Below, one piece after another: positions 2,775-10,948 of a stretch of 64,000 nt of DNA; the first letter of the stretch is position 1; each line of letters opens with the position of its first letter. The position numbers were made by a program, and so were the translations under genes. The notes beneath the pieces were generated by a model. That model saw nothing but the letters and a program-made list of their open reading frames with translations, was not told the origin of the DNA and made no database searches. Source of the stretch: a virus (taxonomy: Duplodnaviria > Caudoviricetes); IMG/VR virus record IMGVR_UViG_3300028797_002668, positions 1 through 64,000 of that record; one strand, 5' to 3'.

Positions 2775-2851
2775 AGCACTCGGACAGGCTCGAACTGTCG
2801 ATCATGCGGTTGCGGCGCATTGCCTTTAAAAACCAACTTGGCTACGAGTGC
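2775..2851 (-). tRNA. tRNA-Cys(GCA)
   Basis: Cloverleaf GCACTCG/CGAGTGC, anticodon loop CC-GCA-AC, U73, followed by CTA. Confidence 0.85.
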
Positions 2852-2856
2852 TTAAA

Positions 2857-2929
2857 TATGGCGACCCAGACTCGAACTGGGGTAAACGCTTTTAGGAGAA
2901 GCGCACATATCCAACTATGCTATCGCCAC
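2857..2929 (-). tRNA. tRNA-Arg(CCT)
   Basis: GTGGCGA/TCGCCAT acceptor; CGCTT-CTCCTAA-AAGCG. Confidence 0.9.
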
Positions 2930-2933
2930 ATAA

Positions 2934-3020
2934 TACCGACGCCCAGACTCGAACTGGGATGGGACTTGATGTCCCGGACGATTAGAAGTCGTCTGCACTA
3001 TCCAATTATGCGACGCCGGC
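2934..3020 (-). tRNA. tRNA-Arg(TCT) with long variable arm
   Basis: GACGA-CTTCTAA-TCGTC; extra arm GGGAC-ATCAA-GTCCC. Confidence 0.8.
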
Positions 3021-3026
3021 AAAAGA

Positions 3027-3362
3027 CTAACGCCTTACCGGTCTACACACGAACATACATCGGTCGCTTCCCCATACAGTCTTGGGAGCATTACCGTCAA
3101 AACCACGGATGTCAACCGTGACAATACCGTCGGAATACAGGAAACCGTTGCCTTCGGCAATACCTTCCACCTTTTCCGTGCCGGATTCAAATACAGAATA
3201 ACCGAACGAGTTGCCTTCCCCGGCAACGTCGGAACCCTTCTGGCGAAGATACAGCTTCGCCTTTTCCATATCGCACCCGGTAGCCTCCAGTGCTTCCTTG
3301 CACAGAGCTACGCTGACTTGCGTCTGGTCACGGAGTTCCTTAATCTGTTCCAATGTTGCCAT
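3027..3362 (-). CDS. protein with EF-Ts N-terminal (UBA-like) domain
   Basis: MATLEQIKELRDQTQVSVALCKEALEATGCDMEKAKLYLRQKG matches the EF-Ts N-terminus; AAGGA SD before ATG 3362; too short for a full EF-Ts. Confidence 0.8.
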   Translation of the reverse strand: MATLEQIKELRDQTQVSVALCKEALEATGCDMEKAKLYLRQKGSDVAGEGNSFGYSVFESGTEKVEGIAEGNGFLYSDGIVTVDIRGFDGNAPKTVWGSDRCMFVCRPVRR

Positions 3363-3420
3363 AGTTATTCCTTGCTTAATTCCTACAGAGTAACACTTCG
3401 GATAACCCCTCAACTTCGGA

Positions 3421-3636
3421 CTATACTAAATCCCAGAAGTTGTCTTGCAAAAGCTGCATATCTTCCGGATCCAAATCCTTCTGGTCGTTCAAGAACCGCT
3501 CCGCAAAGTCCTCAAGCTTCCGCTTCGCGGACCGTCTGAGACGCTTGCGTCCCTTGTTGTGCTTCGGCGTACTGGTGTCGTGCTTGTGGTTGACATCGTC
3601 GTTTCCGCGTTCTTTCGCCCAAATCTTGTCACCCAT
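3421..3636 (-). CDS. small basic hypothetical protein
   Basis: ORF with AAGGA-type SD; overlaps the stop of the upstream gene. Confidence 0.6.
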   Translation of the reverse strand: MGDKIWAKERGNDDVNHKHDTSTPKHNKGRKRLRRSAKRKLEDFAERFLNDQKDLDPEDMQLLQDNFWDLV

Positions 3637-3853
3637 CGTCTTCTTCCTTCGGCGGATCAATCGTCGCCACCAGCTTTATGCCAATTAGTTTAGGCTGCGG
3701 CGGCAGTTTCTTCATAGTCAAATCGAGTGTCAGATAGTTAGGTTCTTCAAAAGTGAACTTATACTCGAACAATTCCGGAGGATATCTCCTCTGGACTTCC
3801 GCTATTCGCGCTTTCTCTCGCGGTGACAATCGGTTCTCGATTTGTTTATCCAT
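3629..3853 (-). CDS. hypothetical protein
   Basis: MDKQIENR... begins just 3' of tRNA-Leu(TAG). Confidence 0.6.
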   Translation of the reverse strand: MDKQIENRLSPREKARIAEVQRRYPPELFEYKFTFEEPNYLTLDLTMKKLPPQPKLIGIKLVATIDPPKEEDDG

Positions 3854-3867
3854 TATAAAACCCTTAG

Positions 3868-3949
3868 TCTGGGTAGAGGGAATTGAACCCACACGCCTTG
3901 CGGCACTCGATTCTAAGCCGAGACTGTCTACCTATTCCAGCATACCCAG
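3868..3949 (-). tRNA. tRNA-Leu(TAG)
   Basis: CTCGG-CTTAGAA-TCGAG; long variable arm; CTA end. Confidence 0.92.
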
Positions 3950-3953
3950 ATTA

Positions 3954-4024
3954 TTGGCCTACCAGGAGCCGAACCCGATCCTAATGGCTCAAAACCATTC
4001 GTGCTACCGTTACACCATAGGCCA
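3954..4024 (-). tRNA. tRNA-Gln(TTG)
   Basis: TGGCCTA/TAGGCCA; AATGG-TTTTGAG-CCATT. Confidence 0.88.
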
Positions 4025-4038
4025 GAATAAATATATTA

Positions 4039-5259
4039 CTATTCAGGTTTAATGTCAAACTGGTTCACTTTACGTCGGAAAACCTTCCCTTTAAATTCAT
4101 CTGGAAACCGGTTTAAAGTCGCTTCAATAACTCGTTTAGTCAAATGAGTTACTTGTTCTACTTTTCCTACCCAACCAAATTTCATTAAATCTACACCGCT
4201 ATTCAATATTAACGCTTTCCGGTGATTCCATTCATTAAATGTAACACCTATACCATTTAGCCACCCATTATTACGTAATAATCCTTGTTCTGCCGCAGTT
4301 TTCATTACTCGGTTCCGCTCCGCTTGTTTTTGCCTACGCAACGCTTCTTTTGCCATTTGTCGAAGCTGTTTCGATTTCTCCTTTTCAACTGGCACCGGTA
4401 ATGGCGGTATAGTATTACTATCGGGTGATACAAATGAACGGATCAACTCATCAACATAAAAGTTCTTTTGGTTATCATTTAATTGCATAAACGATTTCCA
4501 CCGCACCCTAGCGATTAAAAACCAGCCTTTCTCTGCCAACTTCTTAGTACGCTCAATATCGTGTAATTTCCCATACTCATCATAATGCTGCTCACCATCG
4601 ACTTCAAAATAAACCTTTGTATCAAGATTGGCAAAATCTAGTCGATAACGGCTTACTTGCAAATTATTTGCCCAGTGTATACTTTCACAACGCGAGTTAA
4701 CTATATCATAAAAATATTGTTCAGCATAACTACGCTGTTTCAATGGTCCAGACCAGTTATATTTAACTCGGTGAGTTGCCAAATATTGCTTTCTTGCATC
4801 ACTTAATTTCTTACGTGTACTTGGTGTAACCATTCGGTGTTTATATAATCCTAACGCAGTACGAGCCATATACGTTTCTGTACTTTTTCGATGCGCATCA
4901 TAATTAATAATTCGGCCAAGTCTATCAGTCGGCAATTTCTTTTTAGCTTCACATATCTTATAATGCGAAAATAAAATCCGTCGAGTTTCGAAAAAATTAT
5001 GGCAATACTTACATTCCCAAGTTCTAGCGTCGGCACTAATAGTGCCCGGTTTAGCATATTTGCCGTGTTCATCAATCCGATGCTGATCTCGAATATGTAA
5101 TGTTTTAAAAAACTGGTGACAAATAGGGCATTCCCAAGAATACGGTTTAGCTTTTATTTTATCTAGTCCGTGGATTGATTTCTTATGGCGACGCATCGCC
5201 GATTTACTTTCAAACAGTTCACCACATTTAGGACAATTACACGGTTTTGACTTAGACAT
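4039..5259 (-). CDS. putative homing endonuclease: C2H2-like zinc fingers plus DUF559/Vsr-like nuclease domain
   Basis: Three CxxC...H/C fingers; YRLDFA...YFEVDGEQHY...D..R...L...GW motif; AT-rich insertion in the tRNA array; GAGG SD before ATG 5259. Confidence 0.75.
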   Translation of the reverse strand: MSKSKPCNCPKCGELFESKSAMRRHKKSIHGLDKIKAKPYSWECPICHQFFKTLHIRDQHRIDEHGKYAKPGTISADARTWECKYCHNFFETRRILFSHYKICEAKKKLPTDRLGRIINYDAHRKSTETYMARTALGLYKHRMVTPSTRKKLSDARKQYLATHRVKYNWSGPLKQRSYAEQYFYDIVNSRCESIHWANNLQVSRYRLDFANLDTKVYFEVDGEQHYDEYGKLHDIERTKKLAEKGWFLIARVRWKSFMQLNDNQKNFYVDELIRSFVSPDSNTIPPLPVPVEKEKSKQLRQMAKEALRRQKQAERNRVMKTAAEQGLLRNNGWLNGIGVTFNEWNHRKALILNSGVDLMKFGWVGKVEQVTHLTKRVIEATLNRFPDEFKGKVFRRKVNQFDIKPE

Positions 5260-5382
5260 ATCAGCCTCAATAAAGAATGTCCTCGGTATAGCAATATTGT
5301 GGCACTCTGCATATACCGAGGACATCGAAAACTTTATTGGTTTCTACAAGACCGTGAGTGCCACCTAACGCTCTTATATACC

Positions 5383-5390
5383 AGTTTATA
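5383..5390 (-). promoter_or_regulatory. putative late promoter TATAAACT
   Basis: Motif recurs upstream of virion genes throughout the window. Confidence 0.55.
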
Positions 5391-5419
5391 TGTCCTAAAT
5401 TATATCATTATTTGAGATA

Positions 5420-5503
5420 TCGACAGAAAGGGACTTGAACCCTTACGTACTTTCGTACACGAAACTCTGAATTTCGCTAGGCTACCAATTACTACATCTG
5501 CCG
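5420..5503 (-). tRNA. tRNA-Leu(CAG)
   Basis: CGAAA-TTCAGAG-TTTCG; long variable arm. Confidence 0.9.
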
Positions 5504-5507
5504 TTAG

Positions 5508-5592
5508 TCGCTCAAGTGGGAGTCGAACCCACACGTCCTTTCGGACAACGCATTTTGAGTGCGTCGCGTATCGCCAATTCCGCCACAGAGCG
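5508..5592 (-). tRNA. tRNA-Leu(CAA)
   Basis: ACGCA-CTCAAAA-TGCGT; long variable arm; CTA end. Confidence 0.92.
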
Positions 5593-5598
5593 TTGTAG

Positions 5599-5669
5599 AG
5601 CACCTAGTCAGATTCGAACTGGCGATTGCGGTTTGGAAGACCACCTTGTTACCACTACAATATAGGTGC
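5599..5669 (-). tRNA. tRNA-Gly(TCC)
   Basis: GTGGT-CTTCCAA-ACCGC; U73; CTA end. Confidence 0.9.
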
Positions 5670-5673
5670 TTAG

Positions 5674-5766
5674 TGCGGGTAGGGGGATTCGAACCCAATT
5701 CCGACTCCGCGATTAAAAGTCGCGTACTCTTGGCGTAGAACGCACTACCAGCTGAGTTATACCCGC
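5674..5766 (-). tRNA. tRNA-Lys(TTT) with D-loop and T-stem insertions
   Basis: GCGGGTA/TACCCGC; CGCGA-CTTTTAA-TCGCG; about 16 extra nt in the D-loop and a 4-nt bulge in the T-stem. Confidence 0.75.
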
Positions 5767-5797
5767 ATAATTCGCAGCTGATAGGCAGCTGTCACCA

Positions 5798-5824
5798 TCA
5801 TAATCGTTTGCATTTTCGTTTCAT
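5798..5824 (-). CDS. micro-ORF MKRKCKRL (putative Lys-sensing leader peptide)
   Basis: AAAGGA SD 8 nt before ATG; three AAA codons; directly upstream of tRNA-Lys(TTT). Confidence 0.5.
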   Translation of the reverse strand: MKRKCKRL

Positions 5825-5842
5825 AATTAGTTTCCTTTGTAG

Positions 5843-5928
5843 TCGCCCATACCGAACTCGAATCGGTACGCGATTACTCGCAGGGAATTTTAAGTTCCCA
5901 ATGTCTACCCAAATTCCATCAATGGGCG
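5843..5928 (-). tRNA. tRNA-Leu(TAA)
   Basis: GGGAA-CTTAAAA-TTCCC; long variable arm; CTA end. Confidence 0.92.
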
Positions 5929-5942
5929 TTGTTAAAGTTTAG

Positions 5943-6030
5943 TCTCGATGGGCAGAGTCGGACTGCCACGCACGTTTGTATATGCCACAGGCTCTCAACC
6001 TGTTATGTCTACCAGTTCCATCACATCGAG
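5943..6030 (-). tRNA. tRNA-Leu(GAG)
   Basis: ACAGG-TTGAGAG-CCTGT; long variable arm; T-loop TCCGACT. Confidence 0.85.
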
Positions 6031-6037
6031 ATAGTAG

Positions 6038-6109
6038 TTGCCGATGATGGGATCGAACCACCGAATAGAGGAGTCAGAGTCCTCTGCCTTACCGCTTGGC
6101 GAATCGGCA
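6038..6109 (-). tRNA. tRNA-Gln(CTG)
   Basis: GAGGA-CTCTGAC-TCCTC. Confidence 0.93.
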
Positions 6110-6117
6110 ATAATTAG

Positions 6118-6190
6118 AGCGGCATACCGGGTTCGAACCGGTGACCTCCACCATGGCAAGGTGGCGCACTACCAACTGTGCTAATGCCGC
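6118..6190 (-). tRNA. tRNA-Gly(GCC)
   Basis: CCACC-TTGCCAT-GGTGG. Confidence 0.94.
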
Positions 6191-6199
6191 ATATTTTAG

Positions 6200-6273
6200 G
6201 TGGATAGACCGGCCCCGACCCGGCAACCTCTGGCGCCACAAGCCAGAACTCTACCAATTGAGCTACCATCCAC
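6200..6273 (-). tRNA. tRNA-His(GTG)
   Basis: Encoded G-1:C73; CTGGC-TTGTGGC-GCCAG; atypical T-loop GTCGGGG. Confidence 0.88.
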
Positions 6274-6280
6274 ATATTAG

Positions 6281-6367
6281 AAGAGGGTACAGGATTTGAA
6301 CCTGTGAGGGAGTTACCCCTGTCTCGTTAGCACCGAGATGCAATCAGCCGGACTCTGCCAACCCTCC
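6281..6367 (-). tRNA. tRNA-Ser(GCT)
   Basis: TCTCG-GTGCTAA-CGAGA; long variable arm. Confidence 0.9.
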
Positions 6368-6371
6368 ATAA

Positions 6372-6443
6372 CGCCTACTGAGAATATCGAAATCCCGACC
6401 TACCGATTACGAAACGGTTGCTCTGCCTCTGAGCTAAGTAGGC
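6372..6443 (-). tRNA. tRNA-Thr(CGT)
   Basis: ACCGT-TTCGTAA-TCGGT; GCCTACT/AGTAGGC. Confidence 0.88.
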
Positions 6444-7226
6444 TTAAACATAAACACCAATTAACTGAGTATCTGGCTTAAATTGATGACGCCGTGTACT
6501 GCGCAGTTCAGAAAATTTAGGAATATAGTTATTAAACCAGCGATAAATCGCCGGGTGTTTTAAATGACATTGACTCGTAAATTCCGTTATACTTCGACAA
6601 TTACTTTGATGAAAAGAATCCCATAACTGTTGCGCCTTCCGTAATGATTGCTGATAATCATTATTATGATATCGATGCACAATTTTATCATTGGCTTGTA
6701 TAGCATTATATGTATGCTTAAACTTTAAAGCTGATTGTTCGCCACGAAACAAGTTTCTGCCTTGATACCACGGGTAATTTAATTGAGTACGCGATCGTTT
6801 AGACTCGCCCGTATAACAATTAGTATACCAGTGAGTACCATATTGAGAATTATTTTCGCCAGATTGTACGGTCGCGAGAAGTTGACTTACTTGCTTAGAA
6901 AATTCGGCTCTATAGTATTCATATACGTGTGAATTAACATATCGACACAGTCGAGGTTTTTTACTTGACATTCGCCACAGTGCATACAACATTTTCGCAC
7001 GTTCATCACTATTTAATGGATAAATTTTAACCAATAACCAGTGACATATAAAATGCTCTCTTCCAGTTAATAATGCCATATTTTGAATAGCATCTTTACC
7101 ACCCAACGAACGCGGCACAATATGATGGTCTTCAAAATACTTGCCTTGTTTCTTCAAGGCTAACCGTTCAGTTCGTTCAGACTGAGCACGCAATACAATG
7201 CTTGCGTAAATTCTAGTATAATTCAT
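6444..7226 (-). CDS. HNH homing endonuclease
   Basis: EDHHIVPRSLGGKDAIQNMALLTGREHFICHWLL (HNH core) and SGENNSQYG (NUMOD-like); AT-rich; stop abuts tRNA-Thr. Confidence 0.88.
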   Translation of the reverse strand: MNYTRIYASIVLRAQSERTERLALKKQGKYFEDHHIVPRSLGGKDAIQNMALLTGREHFICHWLLVKIYPLNSDERAKMLYALWRMSSKKPRLCRYVNSHVYEYYRAEFSKQVSQLLATVQSGENNSQYGTHWYTNCYTGESKRSRTQLNYPWYQGRNLFRGEQSALKFKHTYNAIQANDKIVHRYHNNDYQQSLRKAQQLWDSFHQSNCRSITEFTSQCHLKHPAIYRWFNNYIPKFSELRSTRRHQFKPDTQLIGVYV

Positions 7227-7255
7227 AATAAAACATCTGGCAATGTTCTAATTAT

Positions 7256-7263
7256 AGTTTATA
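7256..7263 (-). promoter_or_regulatory. putative late promoter TATAAACT
   Basis: About 30 nt upstream of the HNH start codon. Confidence 0.55.
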
Positions 7264-7384
7264 ACAGTTTGAATTACCAGAGTAAGACTCGAACGACAAG
7301 TCAAGTAATGCCAGTTACCTGTCCTCTGGTAATCCACATTGCATTACTTAAATTATATTCTTTATGAAATACTACGTTTTTTAG

Positions 7385-7466
7385 CGGAAGCGGAGGGACT
7401 CGAACCCCCAAACCTTACGGCCGGTTGCTTTCGAGGCAACTCCACCACCAGTTGTGGGACACTTCC
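7385..7466 (-). tRNA. tRNA-Ser(CGA)
   Basis: GTTGC-CTCGAAA-GCAAC; long variable arm; G73. Confidence 0.9.
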
Positions 7467-7472
7467 AAATAG

Positions 7473-7545
7473 TCAGCGTGGGTGGACTCGAACCACCGAC
7501 CTCACCGCCCCGAACGGTGCGCTCTACCAGCTGAGCTACACGCTG
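7473..7545 (-). tRNA. tRNA-Pro(CGG)
   Basis: CACCG-TTCGGGG-CGGTG. Confidence 0.94.
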
Positions 7546-7560
7546 AAAGTTTGTTGTTAG

Positions 7561-7634
7561 TCGGCGTAGCTGAATTCGAATCAGCGACCCCTTGCGCCCA
7601 AAGCAAGTGCTCTACCAGACTGAGCTACACGCCG
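7561..7634 (-). tRNA. tRNA-Pro(TGG)
   Basis: CTTGC-TTTGGGC-GCAAG. Confidence 0.94.
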
Positions 7635-7642
7635 TTATTTCG

Positions 7643-7724
7643 CGGAAGCGGAGGGACTCGAACCCCCAAATCTTTCGACCGGCGGTTTTCAAGACCGCTC
7701 CACCACCAGTTGTGGGACGCTTCC
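7643..7724 (-). tRNA. tRNA-Ser(TGA)
   Basis: GCGGT-CTTGAAA-ACCGC; near-duplicate of the Ser(CGA) body. Confidence 0.9.
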
Positions 7725-7736
7725 AAAAAGTTTTAG

Positions 7737-7820
7737 TGCCAGTGGAGCGACTCGAACGCCCTAAGCCCAAAGGCAACGGATTTACAGTCCGTCCCGACTC
7801 ACCATCGTCGGCGCACTGGC
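7737..7820 (-). tRNA. tRNA-Tyr(GTA)
   Basis: ACGGA-CTGTAAA-TCCGT; variable arm. Confidence 0.9.
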
Positions 7821-7827
7821 ATAATAG

Positions 7828-7899
7828 CAGGGACTGAGCGATTCGAACGCCCATAGACGCTTTTGGAGAGCGCGAGACTAGCCGTTGTCCTAAATCCCT
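7828..7899 (-). tRNA. tRNA-Trp(CCA)
   Basis: GCGCT-CTCCAAA-AGCGT; G73. Confidence 0.88.
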
Positions 7900-7905
7900 A
7901 AATAG

Positions 7906-7980
7906 CTCCACTGGCACGCATCGAACGTGCAGAAAGCCGCATTAACAGTGCGGTGCGTCTACCAATTCCGCCACAGTGGA
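7906..7980 (-). tRNA. tRNA-Asn(GTT)
   Basis: CCGCA-CTGTTAA-TGCGG; G73. Confidence 0.9.
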
Positions 7981-7991
7981 ATAAAAAGTAA

Positions 7992-8067
7992 TACTCGATC
8001 TTGGATTCGAACCAAGGTTATTTCTGCTTGTAGGGCAGACGCCATAGACCGACTAGGCGAATCGAGT
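7992..8067 (-). tRNA. tRNA-Val(TAC)
   Basis: TCTGC-CCTACAA-GCAGA (C33). Confidence 0.85.
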
Positions 8068-8125
8068 GAAACACTTTCGGACAAGGTTTAATATGGTTTG
8101 CCATATCCTTCTTGGCCGATGTTAG

Positions 8126-8201
8126 CGAGGACGGCGGGATTCGAACCCGCGAAAATGTCGGTTAGACAGACCGATGTGTTAGGCCACTTCACCACATCCC
8201 C
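8126..8201 (-). tRNA. tRNA-Asp(GTC)
   Basis: TCGGT-CTGTCTA-ACCGA (U37); G73. Confidence 0.88.
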
Positions 8202-8214
8202 AAAATTTCTGTAG

Positions 8215-8286
8215 TTGCGGAGGCTGGGTTTGAACCAGCGACGCACGGATTATGATTCCGTCGCTCTACCACTGAGCTACACCGCA
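8215..8286 (-). tRNA. tRNA-Met(CAT); initiator versus elongator/Ile2 uncertain
   Basis: ACGGA-ATCATAA-TCCGT; U1-A72; lacks three consecutive G-C pairs in the anticodon stem. Confidence 0.85.
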
Positions 8287-8290
8287 ATAG

Positions 8291-8363
8291 TACCCCACGA
8301 AGGACTTGAACCTTCAACCCAAGCATTAAGAGTGCCTTGCTCTACCAGTTGAGCTAGTGAGGT
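8291..8363 (-). tRNA. tRNA-Lys(CTT)
   Basis: AGGCA-CTCTTAA-TGCTT. Confidence 0.93.
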
Positions 8364-8367
8364 ATAG

Positions 8368-8566
8368 TGGGACCGCCTGGATTCGAACCAGAGCTAGGTC
8401 ACGGATTAAGGCATCCAGACCGTGAGAGTTACCAGCTCCCACCCGCATCTCCATTTAAGAGTTCGTTAGGTCTCTGTACTACTTAAAGATATGTTGTGAT
8501 TGGTATTCACTAACCAGCAAGATTCCGTTGACTTTTTCCTACTACCATTTCTGCGGCAGCGTTCCC
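8368..8566 (-). ncRNA. 199-nt tRNA-like RNA with expanded anticodon-arm domain
   Basis: Acceptor GGGAACG/CGGTCCC-A-CTA, canonical T-arm TCTGG-TTCGAAT-CCAGG, D-like hairpin, and a long helix enclosing about 110 nt. Confidence 0.7.
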
Positions 8567-8579
8567 ATGAATTTGTTAG

Positions 8580-8652
8580 TGCCTCCCTCCCGTAACGATC
8601 GGGAATCTCAGGATTTTCAGTCCCGCGCATAGACCATCTTTGCTAGAAAGGC
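8580..8652 (-). tRNA. tRNA-Phe(GAA)
   Basis: CGGGA-CTGAAAA-TCCTG; atypical T-loop ATCGTTA. Confidence 0.85.
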
Positions 8653-8655
8653 ATA

Positions 8656-8737
8656 AAGGGTTGGGCTTCCGCGACCACTGGTTTTCAACGCCACTGCGGT
8701 TACCCCTTGACACGCGTTGTGTGGTAGGCGAACGCGT
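8656..8737 (-). ncRNA. structured intergenic RNA of unknown class
   Basis: Hairpins ACGCGTT/AACGCGT and AAGGG..CCGC/GCGG..CCCTT with loop-loop complementarity. Confidence 0.45.
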
Positions 8738-8748
8738 AGCAATTTTAG

Positions 8749-8822
8749 TGTTCGCCCCAAGACTTGAACTTGAAACCGCCTGGATATCAGCCAGGTACTC
8801 TAACCAATTGAGCTAGACGAAC
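8749..8822 (-). tRNA. tRNA-Ile(GAT)
   Basis: CCTGG-CTGATAT-CCAGG. Confidence 0.92.
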
Positions 8823-8826
8823 ATAG

Positions 8827-8900
8827 TAGCCTTGTCCGGTGTCGATCCGGATTCTCCACCGTGAAAGGGTGGTGACTTAGCCAACGTGGTCGACAAGGCC
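8827..8900 (-). tRNA. tRNA-Glu(TTC)
   Basis: CCACC-CTTTCAC-GGTGG. Confidence 0.88.
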
Positions 8901-8911
8901 AAAAGTTGTAG

Positions 8912-8983
8912 TACCTCCTCCCTTAGTCGAAAAGGGATCGTTCGGTTCGTAGCCGAGTGCTCTTCCAGTTAAGCTAAGGAGGC
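8912..8983 (-). tRNA. tRNA-Arg(ACG)
   Basis: CTCGG-CTACGAA-CCGAA; A20. Confidence 0.88.
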
Positions 8984-9003
8984 AAAATTTTATTTAAAAT
9001 TAG

Positions 9004-9076
9004 TGGATACTGATGGTGCTCGAAACCATATAGACCGGATGCGAACCGATTGCTCTTCCTCTTGAGCTACAGACCC
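9004..9076 (-). tRNA. tRNA-Ala(CGC)
   Basis: G3-U70; ATCGG-TTCGCAT-CCGGT; bulged acceptor stem. Confidence 0.8.
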
Positions 9077-9085
9077 AATATTTAG

Positions 9086-9469
9086 TGGACCGCACTGGAC
9101 TCGAACCAGCCTCGTATAGACCCCAGTCCGGGAAGTTTCACTGTTCCATCACTGATACTCGGCGTCGGCAACAACGTCGTTGGTATCTGGTAACCGCAAC
9201 CGTTAACTGAAACCTACCTAAATCTATCAGTAGATAGACCTATGTGATTTCCTACCTTGCTCATTGCTGAGTAGGACGTAACGGCACTTAATCAACCGTA
9301 TCTACGCGATATACCTAATATGCATCAAGCAATACGGCTGACTTGCCTAGTCCTACTTCCTTACGGAAGAGCCTTAACACGGTCGGCATATCGAACTAGG
9401 CATTCATTTATGTTTGCTGTTGACTACTCATTCCTATCTGTCTATACAGTGCCCTGCTTCTAGCAGCCC
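9086..9469 (-). ncRNA. ssrA: tmRNA
   Basis: 384 nt; acceptor GGGCTGC/GCGGTCC-A with G3-U70; T-arm; P2 helix GTATAGAC/GTCTATAC; resume context ATAAAT-GAA with a short ORF ending in a hairpin. Confidence 0.85.
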
Positions 9470-9480
9470 AAATAAGTTAG

Positions 9481-9554
9481 TGGATACTGACGGGACTCGA
9501 ACCCGTAAGAACGCTACATGCCATGTAGGTGCAATTCCATTCTGCCACAGACCC
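9481..9554 (-). tRNA. tRNA-Ala(GGC)
   Basis: G3-U70; CTAC-ATGGCAT-GTAG; same bulged acceptor as Ala(CGC). Confidence 0.8.
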
Positions 9555-9560
9555 ATATAA

Positions 9561-9629
9561 TGGACATACGCATTTCGATTGCGTGACCTTTCACAATAAG
9601 TGAACGCTCTTCCTACTGAGCTAATGCCC
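9561..9629 (-). tRNA. aberrant tRNA (6-bp acceptor with G3-U; 5-nt anticodon loop TTATT; could be read as Ile-TAT or pseudo-tRNA)
   Basis: Intact D-arm GCTC/GAGC and T-arm ACGCA/TGCGT; TTCAC-TTATT-GTGAA. Confidence 0.55.
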
Positions 9630-9730
9630 TAAGTTGTTTTTGTTTGTCCGTACCCATTGCTGGGTACGAACTAAAAGGGTTATCCGACTTGTCAATCTGC
9701 TGACAAGCTTCACGAGCTTGTCTTTTTTAG

Positions 9731-9802
9731 TGGAGACGAAGGAAATCGAATCCTTCCAACAACTTTGCAAGAGTCATTCGCCGCCTTGGTACATGCGCCC
9801 CC
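9731..9802 (-). tRNA. tRNA-Ala(TGC)
   Basis: GGGGGCG/CGTCTCC with G3-U70; TGACT-CTTGCAA-AGTTG; weak D-arm. Confidence 0.8.
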
Positions 9803-9818
9803 ATGTAGTCTAGTTATC

Positions 9819-9853
9819 AAAAAACCCCGGTTGCTTTTGCTGCAACCGGGGTT
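9819..9853 (-). terminator. intrinsic terminator (attenuator) directly upstream of the tRNA array
   Basis: CCCCGGTTGC-AGCAAAA-GCAACCGGGG-TTTTTT on the - strand, 16 nt before the first tRNA. Confidence 0.85.
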
Positions 9854-9893
9854 CCCATCAAACATCAACCTTCAAGGAAATCATCGGTGCAAC
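9839..9893 (-). promoter_or_regulatory. putative antiterminator hairpin
   Basis: GTTGCA-CCG-atga-TTTCC...GGGAA-ccc-CGG-t-TGCAGC; sequesters the 5' arm of the terminator and spans the leader stop codon. Confidence 0.65.
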
Positions 9894-9994
9894 TCTCTCG
9901 CCTCCCAGCAACCCGTATATGCAAACGGACGGTCAGCAACTGGTGCCAACTTACTATTGCGTTCGAGTTTAATCTGTGAGTATAAGTGTTGCAT
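9881..9994 (-). CDS. putative attenuator leader peptide MQHLYSQIKLERNSKLAPVADRPFAYTGCWEARELHR (all 20 amino acids)
   Basis: 37 sense codons, 33 distinct; lies between promoter and terminator; alternative in-frame ATG at 10027 adds MVYDFVTKKRI. Confidence 0.7.
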   Translation of the reverse strand: MQHLYSQIKLERNSKLAPVADRPFAYTGCWEARELHR

Positions 9995-10051
9995 AATTCT
10001 TTTCTTGGTTACGAAATCATACACCATGTAGATTTCTGTAATTCGCCTAAA

Positions 10052-10080
10052 AGTTTAGCAATTATTTTTCAAATTGTAAA
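10052..10080 (-). promoter_or_regulatory. sigma70-type promoter of the leader/tRNA array
   Basis: TTTACA-17 nt-TAAACT with extended -10 TG. Confidence 0.7.
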
Positions 10081-10146
10081 GGGTTTTTGCTGGTTTTTTG
10101 ATAAAAAAGTTATTTTTGCCAGAAATATGTGATTTTCATCACACTT

Positions 10147-10377
10147 TTAGTAAATATATGAGGTATAGGCGGCTTCGCCGGGAATGCATCTCTGTATTGA
10201 GAAATGTCCGGCGCCGAACTTGGCGCAACCGAAATCGAATGCACCCCCTACTGTATCGAAGGCATTGATAACTACTTGGTTGTGGATTACCAATTGTTTT
10301 CCGTTGTACTTAAGAACCAATTCATCTTGGTTCGCTATGAAATAATTAAGATCCGATTCGAAATTGTAGTTCGTCAT
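10147..10377 (-). CDS. small protein, DUF5678-like
   Basis: YFIANQDELVLKYNGKQLVIHNQVVINAFDT...FSIQ pattern. Confidence 0.6.
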   Translation of the reverse strand: MTNYNFESDLNYFIANQDELVLKYNGKQLVIHNQVVINAFDTVGGAFDFGCAKFGAGHFSIQRCIPGEAAYTSYIY

Positions 10378-10393
10378 AAATAATTAATATGTG

Positions 10394-10948
10394 TTAAAGT
10401 GCTTGTGTAAAACTAAGATCAGCCGTTATATTCAAATATGTATGTTCTGGTATAAGATTCAATGGTAGTTCAACTTTCAACGTATACAACGGGTCTAGCG
10501 TTGTTGTGTCGGAAAGATATATCTGAAATGGAAATTTAAGTGTCGTGGTGGCAACTTGCAATCCGTTCAAATCAGTCATAACATCAACCGCATAGCTGAT
10601 AACCGAGATTCCATCGTTTTCAGTTTCTTTTTGAATTCTTGCGATAACCCCATAATCACCATGTCCAATTTTTGGCGACCCACCAGTATTCTCTTTAATC
10701 CTAACAGTTGCTTCGGCTATGAAGGCTTTTCCGGTATTTCGAACAATATCGGGTAAATTTCCTAATTGAATAGACAGTCGATGATTTGATGCTTCTTGAG
10801 CACTAACGTCATAATTTAGGTTTCCATACCATCTAACTTGACCGGAAAATGGATATAATCCGATATTACGTCGAGCTTGTTCTTCGTCAACCCAATTAAA
10901 CGATTGGTTTATATTGGTACACACGTAATGGCAATCGTTGTCATTCAT
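10394..10948 (-). CDS. putative short tail fibre/receptor-binding protein
   Basis: N-terminal EEQARRNIG motif; paralog of the neighbouring gene. Confidence 0.55.
   Translation of the reverse strand: MNDNDCHYVCTNINQSFNWVDEEQARRNIGLYPFSGQVRWYGNLNYDVSAQEASNHRLSIQLGNLPDIVRNTGKAFIAEATVRIKENTGGSPKIGHGDYGVIARIQKETENDGISVISYAVDVMTDLNGLQVATTTLKFPFQIYLSDTTTLDPLYTLKVELPLNLIPEHTYLNITADLSFTQAL

Follow-up and report, generated by a model that had tools for sequence, protein, structure and literature searches.

Leader-peptide attenuation is familiar from amino-acid operons, with trpL, hisL, leuL and thrL and the multivalent ilvGMEDA leader as examples, and T-boxes bind one uncharged transfer RNA (tRNA) directly in a process for which translation is not needed. 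Here, we describe a leader of attenuator-like architecture which lies on the minus strand directly upstream of a large tRNA array in a phage genome and whose short peptide samples nearly all amino acids. It is found in the IMG/VR record IMGVR_UViG_3300028797_002668, of which the first 64 kb (positions 1 to 64,000, hereafter the window) were analysed; the whole record is 135 kb, with an estimated completeness of 36%. The phage is giant and distantly T4-like, and matching DNA is present in bovine and goat gut metagenomes.

Leader-peptide attenuators have been modelled (PMC1183508), and short leader open reading frames (ORFs) that respond to stalling in general are described for bmrB-bmrCD (PMC4191407), msrD (PMC10314930) and topAI with its upstream ORF toiL (PMC12121999). 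In Anabaena the trn operon, or L-array, of 26 tRNA genes is silent until translation is impaired (PMC8421152) and is held by the repressor TrcR (PMC10272220). Phage tRNAs have been found to counter host systems that cleave tRNA (PMC10264068, PMC11464382, PMC11555353). Large phage tRNA arrays could serve as a constitutive supplement, or they could be induced in answer to the loss of tRNAs, and next to nothing is known of the timing and dosing of their expression.

We propose that the leader is a ribosome-dependent attenuator coupling transcription of the tRNA array to overall decoding capacity, and that its sampling is pan-amino-acid and not pan-codon; judged on comparative sequence data and modelled folds, the chance that this is right is about even. 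Host RNA polymerase would initiate at a conserved sigma70-type promoter and transcribe a leader ORF of 36-40 codons. The invariant end of this ORF would form a helix with the 5' arm of the strong intrinsic terminator that lies 28 nucleotides (nt) downstream. A ribosome arriving promptly at the last codons would cover this block, the terminator would form and transcription would end about 16 nt before the first tRNA. A ribosome delayed or stalled earlier would leave the block free, the antiterminator would form and transcription would enter the tRNA genes, such that the array is made when decoding capacity is poor, e.g. upon tRNA depletion or cleavage. With 18-20 amino-acid types in the leader, nearly all of them placed before the zone that would be masked, a slowdown at almost any amino acid could delay the ribosome. 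We infer the operation of the switch, its polarity and its physiological signal. The features on which the proposal is built are, in the order of transcription:

10052-10080 (-): sigma70-type promoter, with -35 at 10080-10075, a 17-nt spacer and a TG-extended -10 at 10060-10052 (consensus scan)
10009-10041 (-): hairpin in the 5' untranslated region, a clade-specific insertion of about 34 nt holding the ATG at 10027 (fold and alignment)
9881-9994 (-): leader ORF of 37 codons plus TGA, the last three codons and the stop being invariant in the family (translation and alignment)
9988-9993 (-): segment 1, the start-codon region, predicted to pair with the ORF end as the 1:2 helix (minimum free energy fold and consensus helix)
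9956-9964 (-): codons 11-13, a nucleotide-invariant block (alignment)
9932-9950 (-): internal hairpin over codons 15-21, which may act in pausing or folding (consensus structure)
9876-9893 (-): segment 2, an invariant block of the last codons, TGA and 5 nt, the 5' strand of the predicted antiterminator (alignment and folds)
9858-9872 (-): near-invariant spacer from ORF end to terminator (alignment; local hairpin in the consensus fold)
9819-9856 (-): intrinsic terminator, with 5' arm 9856-9842 (segment 3), loop 9841-9835, 3' arm 9834-9823 (segment 4) and U tract 9824-9819 (fold, conserved in relatives)
9728-9802 (-): tRNA-Ala(UGC)-like element, the first gene past the terminator (relaxed ARAGORN; G3:U70, aberrant D arm)
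2775-9802 (-): tRNA array, the unit proposed to be regulated (ARAGORN and Rfam; syntenic in relatives)

A conserved, probably translated leader upstream of the tRNA array

Relatives were found via a gp15-like tail protein, by patterns of the invariant blocks and by a profile search of 1.84 billion proteins. The tail protein led to related giant-phage contigs, three of which contain a homologous leader, and the profile search of representative proteins returned 7 related small ORFs together with one weak partial match inside an 868-residue protein. Two neighbouring proteins used as queries gave nothing (the 184-residue one) or short fibre-repeat matches only (the 387-residue one), and a search with the exact terminator pattern found no relatives. 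A looser pattern scan of viral contigs pointed to 14 further loci, which were rejected as unrelated coding sequences. The most distant relative, G004 (55% identity), is a 198-kb fragment with neither tRNA genes nor a leader and offers no independent test.

The family comprises 14 different leader peptides, which are 36-40 residues long and share as little as 29% identity with that of the window. For 13 of these variants, all from rumen or gut phage contigs, the DNA is available. The 14-row nucleotide alignment represents 13 peptides, since L033 repeats the peptide of G002. The cassette is single-copy in each locus or record searched. In every locus for which downstream DNA was examined, promoter, Shine-Dalgarno (SD) sequence, ORF, invariant ORF end, spacer, terminator, tRNA and array follow in this order, so that the arrangement of promoter, short ORF, terminator and tRNA array first described for the window by an initial annotation, made from its letters alone, holds as a conserved unit in 13 DNA variants. 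A tRNA-Ala(UGC) or Ala-like element begins 13-25 nt past the terminator in all relatives, and the syntenic arrays hold 30-38 tRNAs, start with Ala-Ala-Ala-Arg-Glu-Ile-Phe-Lys and, where complete, cover 20 amino-acid types. The upstream gene is divergent in L054, and the terminator is thus not merely the end of an upstream operon.

The promoter of the initial annotation, TTTACA-17-TAAACT at 10080-10052 (-), is present and matches the consensus at 9/12 positions with a TG extension. Of the 13 aligned leaders, 12 share its -10 block, TGCTAAACT, without change, and L018 is off by one base; most of the leaders have a TTGACA-like -35 at 17 nt. The unannotated ORF is likewise present at 9994-9881 with the peptide originally given. 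The upstream in-frame ATG (10027) is not conserved and sits in the hairpin insertion, which is limited to the window, G001 and L035, where the inserted sequences differ and nevertheless all form hairpins.

Several features of the alignment indicate that the leader ORF is translated. The start ATG and the stop TGA are fixed, all indels are of 3 or 6 nt, variable columns are distributed 17/10/22 over codon positions 1/2/3, no stop interrupts the leader frame in any of the 14 aligned sequences, whereas nearly all of them have stops in the other two frames, and a strong SD is present in 10/14 (duplex energies -5.9 to -7.1 kcal/mol). Changes in codons 17-26 are mostly synonymous. As in known attenuators, a short ORF with comparative signs of codon reading is therefore found between promoter and terminator.

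Translation does not account for all of the conservation. Codons 11-13 are identical at the nucleotide level without any synonymous change in 12/14 aligned sequences, the G002/L033 clade being the exception, and codon 14 changes little, with no synonymous change in 13/14. These codons together with the frozen last three codons and TGA suggest an RNA-level constraint on top of coding. In the terminated state the spacer may, on modelled folds, pair locally with the 3' part of segment 2. A helix between codons 11-13 and the spacer, a second candidate role for the spacer, was considered and rejected, since it shows no covariation, has an uncompensated mismatch in L051 and is outcompeted by other pairings in the fold of the 14 sequences. 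A second ORF starting in the spacer was also rejected, as 1-nt indels among relatives break its frame.

A motif close to the -10 block of the leader, TGATAAACT, which differs from it by one base, occurs just 5' of several structural genes of this phage (window 54417-54425, 18721-18729 and 14611-14619, all on the minus strand; record positions 124331, 129008 and 131755). The -35 element at 17 nt present in the leader was not found at the two sites inspected (54425 and 18729), and TGATAAACT is a candidate late-promoter motif of the window's phage. Its likeness to the -10 block raised the possibility of a late-type leader promoter.

Predicted pairings and the modelled ribosome

The strong intrinsic terminator at 9853-9819 in the initial annotation was recovered as a hairpin of 15 perfect pairs (about -25 kcal/mol) followed by six T, its base lying at 9856 or 9853. 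It is conserved, with energies of -17.7 to -25.7 kcal/mol in nine relatives and two double changes at one pair. An intrinsic terminator, and no promoter, thus lies between the leader ORF and the tRNA genes.

The end of the ORF has two predicted partners. In the consensus fold of the 14 sequences it forms the 1:2 helix with the start-codon region, and depending on the pair this helix is paired in 11-14 of the 14 sequences. When the 3' arm of the terminator is omitted to mimic a nascent transcript, the consensus fold becomes a 2:3 helix between the ORF end (9893-9876) and the 5' arm and loop of the terminator, and in folds of truncated transcripts segment 2 pairs with 9856-9839. The pairing of the ORF 3' end with the terminator 5' arm put forward in the initial annotation is in this sense borne out as possible. 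Across 12 sequences, 14 pairs of the 2:3 helix form in 98-100% of the cells scored. The first 15 nt of segment 2 are invariant in 14/14 aligned sequences and its last few nt are variable. According to the models, competition of the start region for segment 2 would give the classical layout of 1:2, 2:3 and 3:4 pairings. The internal hairpin at 9932-9950 is changed on both sides of one pair in 2 sequences.

The effect of a translating ribosome was modelled as a 30-nt unpaired mask in equilibrium folding of nine variants. In five of the nine, 11-17 of the 2:3 pairs persist as long as the A-site lies between codon 1 and about codon 26-32. Once it has reached about codon 28-33, a point that differs among variants, the pairs are lost in every one of the nine, and they stay lost up to and including the stop. 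That a ribosome at the stop would mask the antiterminator, as originally suggested, agrees with this, since the modelled pairing disappears only with the ribosome on the final 6-8 codons.

Contigs from two of the relatives, which tell neither strand nor regulation, span leader, terminator and tRNAs in one rumen metatranscriptome. Read-through molecules probably exist, although this is weak evidence and DNA carry-over is possible. RNA contigs end about 12 nt past the start site, predicted near 10045, and leave 10076-10500 uncovered; both are gaps or ends of contigs and were not used as evidence.

Amino-acid and codon content of the leader peptide

All 20 amino acids do occur within codons 1-30, as the initial annotation states, but taken alone this is within look-elsewhere chance. 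The property is seen in 8 of 99,490 stop-free 30-codon windows of the record and at a frequency of about 1.5-1.8e-4 in protein-like nulls, and three other loci in the 135-kb record hold 20 amino acids in 30 codons inside ordinary genes:

Window 6996-7097 (-): 20-in-30 stretch inside the HNH gene
Record 94664-94753 (+): 20-in-30 stretch
Record 115592-115681 (+): 20-in-30 stretch

The 14 leaders contain 20, 19, 19, 18, 19, 20, 20, 19, 20, 18, 19, 19, 19 and 18 types, and 17-20 are already reached in the first n-7 codons, before the zone that a ribosome would mask. Windows of 37 residues in the null have a mean of 15.4-16 types, and at least 19 types are reached with a probability of 1.6-2.7%. 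Shared ancestry accounts for part of this, since the family core alone has 19 types. When the family was simulated on a neighbour-joining tree, with each inferred substitution redrawn once per branch, the summed diversity of 267 exceeded the simulated 248 +/- 6.5 (P=0.003). Where a type is lost from its usual position, the same peptide has it elsewhere in 21 of 29 cases, while 10.7 would be expected; the count includes some alignment artefacts or events shared by descent. Cys, the clearest case, is found two codons before the conserved Phe in 4 of the 5 leaders without the usual Cys and in none of the 9 with it. In the gp15-like protein, which served as control, windows with at least 19 types drop to 17.35 in homologues at 71% identity, whereas the leader relatives average 19.0 types at lower identity. 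These comparisons support near-complete amino-acid sampling as a maintained family trait and not as an absolute requirement.

The codon-level part of the original interpretation has fared less well. Among the first 33 codons there are indeed 32 different ones, but given the peptide, synonymous-codon diversity is only weakly raised in the window (P=0.037). Two relatives give P=0.04-0.05, and in most relatives it is not raised, with P=0.15-0.82 for another six. The idea of pan-codon sampling is therefore rejected. Similarly, the codons were said to mirror the anticodons of the array. Depending on which marginal tRNAs are counted, 34-36 of the 37 codons are indeed readable, but with about 86% of all codons in use by the phage being decoded by the array, this is no more than expected (P=0.44). 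Nor does the match of each phage's leader to its own array rise above expectation (P=0.19-0.80).

A stricter version of the proposal would make the leader an all-amino-acid test translation, in which a hold-up at any of the 20 leads to production of a replacement tRNA set in a self-repair loop. Starvation or the cleavage of a host tRNA by a defence nuclease could cause the hold-up, and what the peptide is composed of, not its sequence, would be under selection. We consider this version rather doubtful.

Weighing the explanations, and relation to known systems

A number of observations weigh against the proposed attenuator. The sensitivity of classical attenuators stems from the repetition of their regulatory codons; with one or two codons per amino acid, mild starvation would probably go unsensed, and the arrangement would suit near-complete tRNA loss. 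The codon-level claims fail, and the diversity statistics assume replacements drawn from the background and rest on 14 related sequences. Trp is absent from 5/14 leaders and Val from 5/14. The arrays of L026 and L037 carry tRNA-Trp despite Trp-less leaders and that of G001 carries tRNA-Val despite a Val-less leader, which speaks against the idea that leader content tracks array content. The SD of the window's own clade is weak (-0.9 kcal/mol), in agreement with the initial annotation, which had noted that a strong one is missing. The window, L031, L035 and L038 were modelled with little or only partial antiterminator at many mid-ORF stall positions because the freed start region re-pairs with segment 2. 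The alignment holds no covariation for the antiterminator, both strands being near-invariant and 8 of the 9 core pairs never varying. The antiterminator duplex barely beats dinucleotide shuffles (P=0.013-0.14), and in the window and G003 the terminator arm has a better partner elsewhere in the ORF. Finally, the invariance of the spacer and of codons 11-13 exceeds what the model needs, the local pairing of the spacer being a tentative explanation.

A separate observation concerns L033, whose leader lacks a Val codon and which has no tRNA-Val at the syntenic position in the 4.6 kb covered downstream of that leader; being a single case, and with no such matching in other relatives, it was not used.

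The cassette might instead be autonomous, a small gene or a small RNA (sRNA) whose product is the 36-40-residue peptide or a terminated RNA acting in trans via the spacer, although we think this unlikely. The tRNAs would then be made from other promoters or by transcription that leaks constitutively past the terminator, and the diversity of amino acids would be incidental. Such a unit would fit the conservation of the peptide core with synonymous changes, the invariant spacer beside a terminator hairpin and U tail, which recalls an sRNA seed or Hfq module, the unremarkable energetics of the antiterminator and the promoter-like sites within the window's array at 7243 and 4058. However, the cassette in every case lies 13-25 nt 5' of the array's first tRNA and at no other place, there is no space for a promoter between terminator and tRNA, and in L037, where about 25 tRNAs follow the terminator, no promoter-like match is better than 9/12. 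The peptide has no match in Pfam or PHROG better than E=0.11. The spacer was rejected as an sRNA seed, as a search throughout the 135-kb record found no complementary target elsewhere. The regain of lost amino-acid types elsewhere in the peptide would also be left unexplained.

We likewise assign only a small probability to a factor-dependent leader, in which codons 11-13, segment 2 and the spacer bind a protein or an RNA such as tRNA, a phage or host factor governs termination, processing or stability of the tRNA precursor, and translation of the ORF is secondary or merely unfolds the RNA. Nucleotide invariance beyond coding needs, a stop that is always TGA and consensus folds with a long-range helix or local hairpin involving the spacer are in line with this, as is the recurrence of a related short motif after the first tRNA, beside a hairpin with compensatory changes. 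Yet no Rfam family, T-box included, matches the leader (none at E<=1 for the window and none at gathering score for three relatives), there is no candidate factor, and the conservation of the frame, the 3-nt indels, the SD and the maintained diversity would go unexplained. Such probability as the autonomous unit and the factor-binding leader retain comes mainly from the unexplained invariant RNA blocks.

The coincidence of an ordinary terminator before tRNAs with a spurious ORF of 20 amino acids might draw on the other 20-in-30 loci of the record and on the post hoc spotting of the feature in a very large scan, but with frame, start, stop and diversity kept in 14 variants down to 29% peptide identity and an essentially invariant -10 block, conservation refutes this very remote explanation for practical purposes.

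The array that the proposed attenuator would control holds 31 tRNAs by default ARAGORN, to which further calls add Lys(UUU) and Cys(GCA) as well as two tRNA-like elements and a transfer-messenger RNA (tmRNA)-like RNA. Together its tRNAs cover all 20 amino acids, a coverage completed by tRNA-Cys(GCA) at 2775-2851 (-), which is detected by Rfam and relaxed ARAGORN only. The initial annotation placed the first tRNA 16 nt past the terminator. An element is indeed found at 9802, but it is not a canonical tRNA call: neither default ARAGORN nor the Rfam tRNA model detects 9728-9802, a 20-bit tmRNA match is all that is returned, and tRNA-Ala(UGC) is called at relaxed ARAGORN threshold only. It has a tRNA-like acceptor stem with G3:U70, a T arm, an aberrant D region and a central hairpin that varies among relatives, several of which have a canonical tRNA-Ala(UGC) in its place. 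Two homing-endonuclease-like genes, at 6444-7226 (-) and 4039-5325 (-), interrupt the array. One is an HNH and one a DUF559 protein with zinc fingers, and both are absent from the compact arrays of relatives such as L026.

Further observations were made within the array. A second tRNA-like element at 9560-9634 (-), missed by default tools, is called Ile(UAU) by relaxed ARAGORN, and its acceptor stem, judged by eye, seems to have G3:U70 too. Right after the first tRNA lies a hairpin, 9675-9722 (-), also present in L051, L052, L053 and L054, with its pairing kept via compensatory changes. It is followed by a conserved motif, TTGACA with a GGATGATTTT-like stretch, which resembles the end of the leader ORF, and hairpin and motif may constitute a processing or regulatory element within the array. 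The tmRNA-like RNA at 9089-9442 (-) is represented by contigs of at least 99% identity in three rumen RNA libraries from two studies, and all three contigs terminate at 9089/9090.

If the proposed attenuator is true, the attenuation principle would be newly applied to tRNA genes, sensing globally instead of for one amino acid, and unusual selection would act on which amino acids a peptide contains and not on their order. It would also provide a compact, portable reporter of tRNA-pool integrity. The idea of array induction upon host tRNA depletion or cleavage becomes testable, and the element, at about 230 nt, is small and open to cell-free study without culture of the rumen host.

Our literature searches found no published leader-peptide control of tRNA genes. 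The earlier statement that no example is described agrees with this as regards tRNA genes, but general-stalling leader ORFs are known for antibiotic-resistance genes. Like a T-box, the phage leader would be a cis leader in which a terminator and an antiterminator read tRNA status; it differs in matching no T-box or other Rfam model. The work on phage tRNAs in counter-defence provides a rationale for a tRNA supply that responds to host tRNA loss. It concerns the tRNAs themselves, and the titles and abstracts of the three papers describe no sensing leader upstream of an array. With the Anabaena trn operon the phage system would share a long accessory tRNA array turned on by translational trouble. 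That operon is controlled differently, by a repressor and direct repeats that act at its promoter, and the texts of the two Anabaena papers mention no leader, attenuation or terminator for the array.

In the bmrCD, msrD and topAI leaders, as proposed here, a short ORF turns impaired translation into read-through of a premature termination signal. These leaders differ in being antibiotic-responsive, with stalls at particular leader positions, and in controlling transporters, ABC-F factors or a toxin-antitoxin pair and not tRNA genes; for none of them has a need for the full set of amino acids been reported. Compared to trpL-type attenuators, the leader described here is phage-encoded, stands before tRNAs instead of biosynthetic enzymes and has no enriched or tandem regulatory codons, its 18-20 amino-acid types each being used about 1-4 times, in parallel to an array for all 20 amino acids. 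It resembles them in its promoter, short ORF, predicted 1:2, 2:3 and 3:4 pairings and terminator ahead of the regulated genes, and, as modelled, in that a ribosome at the end of the ORF would favour termination.

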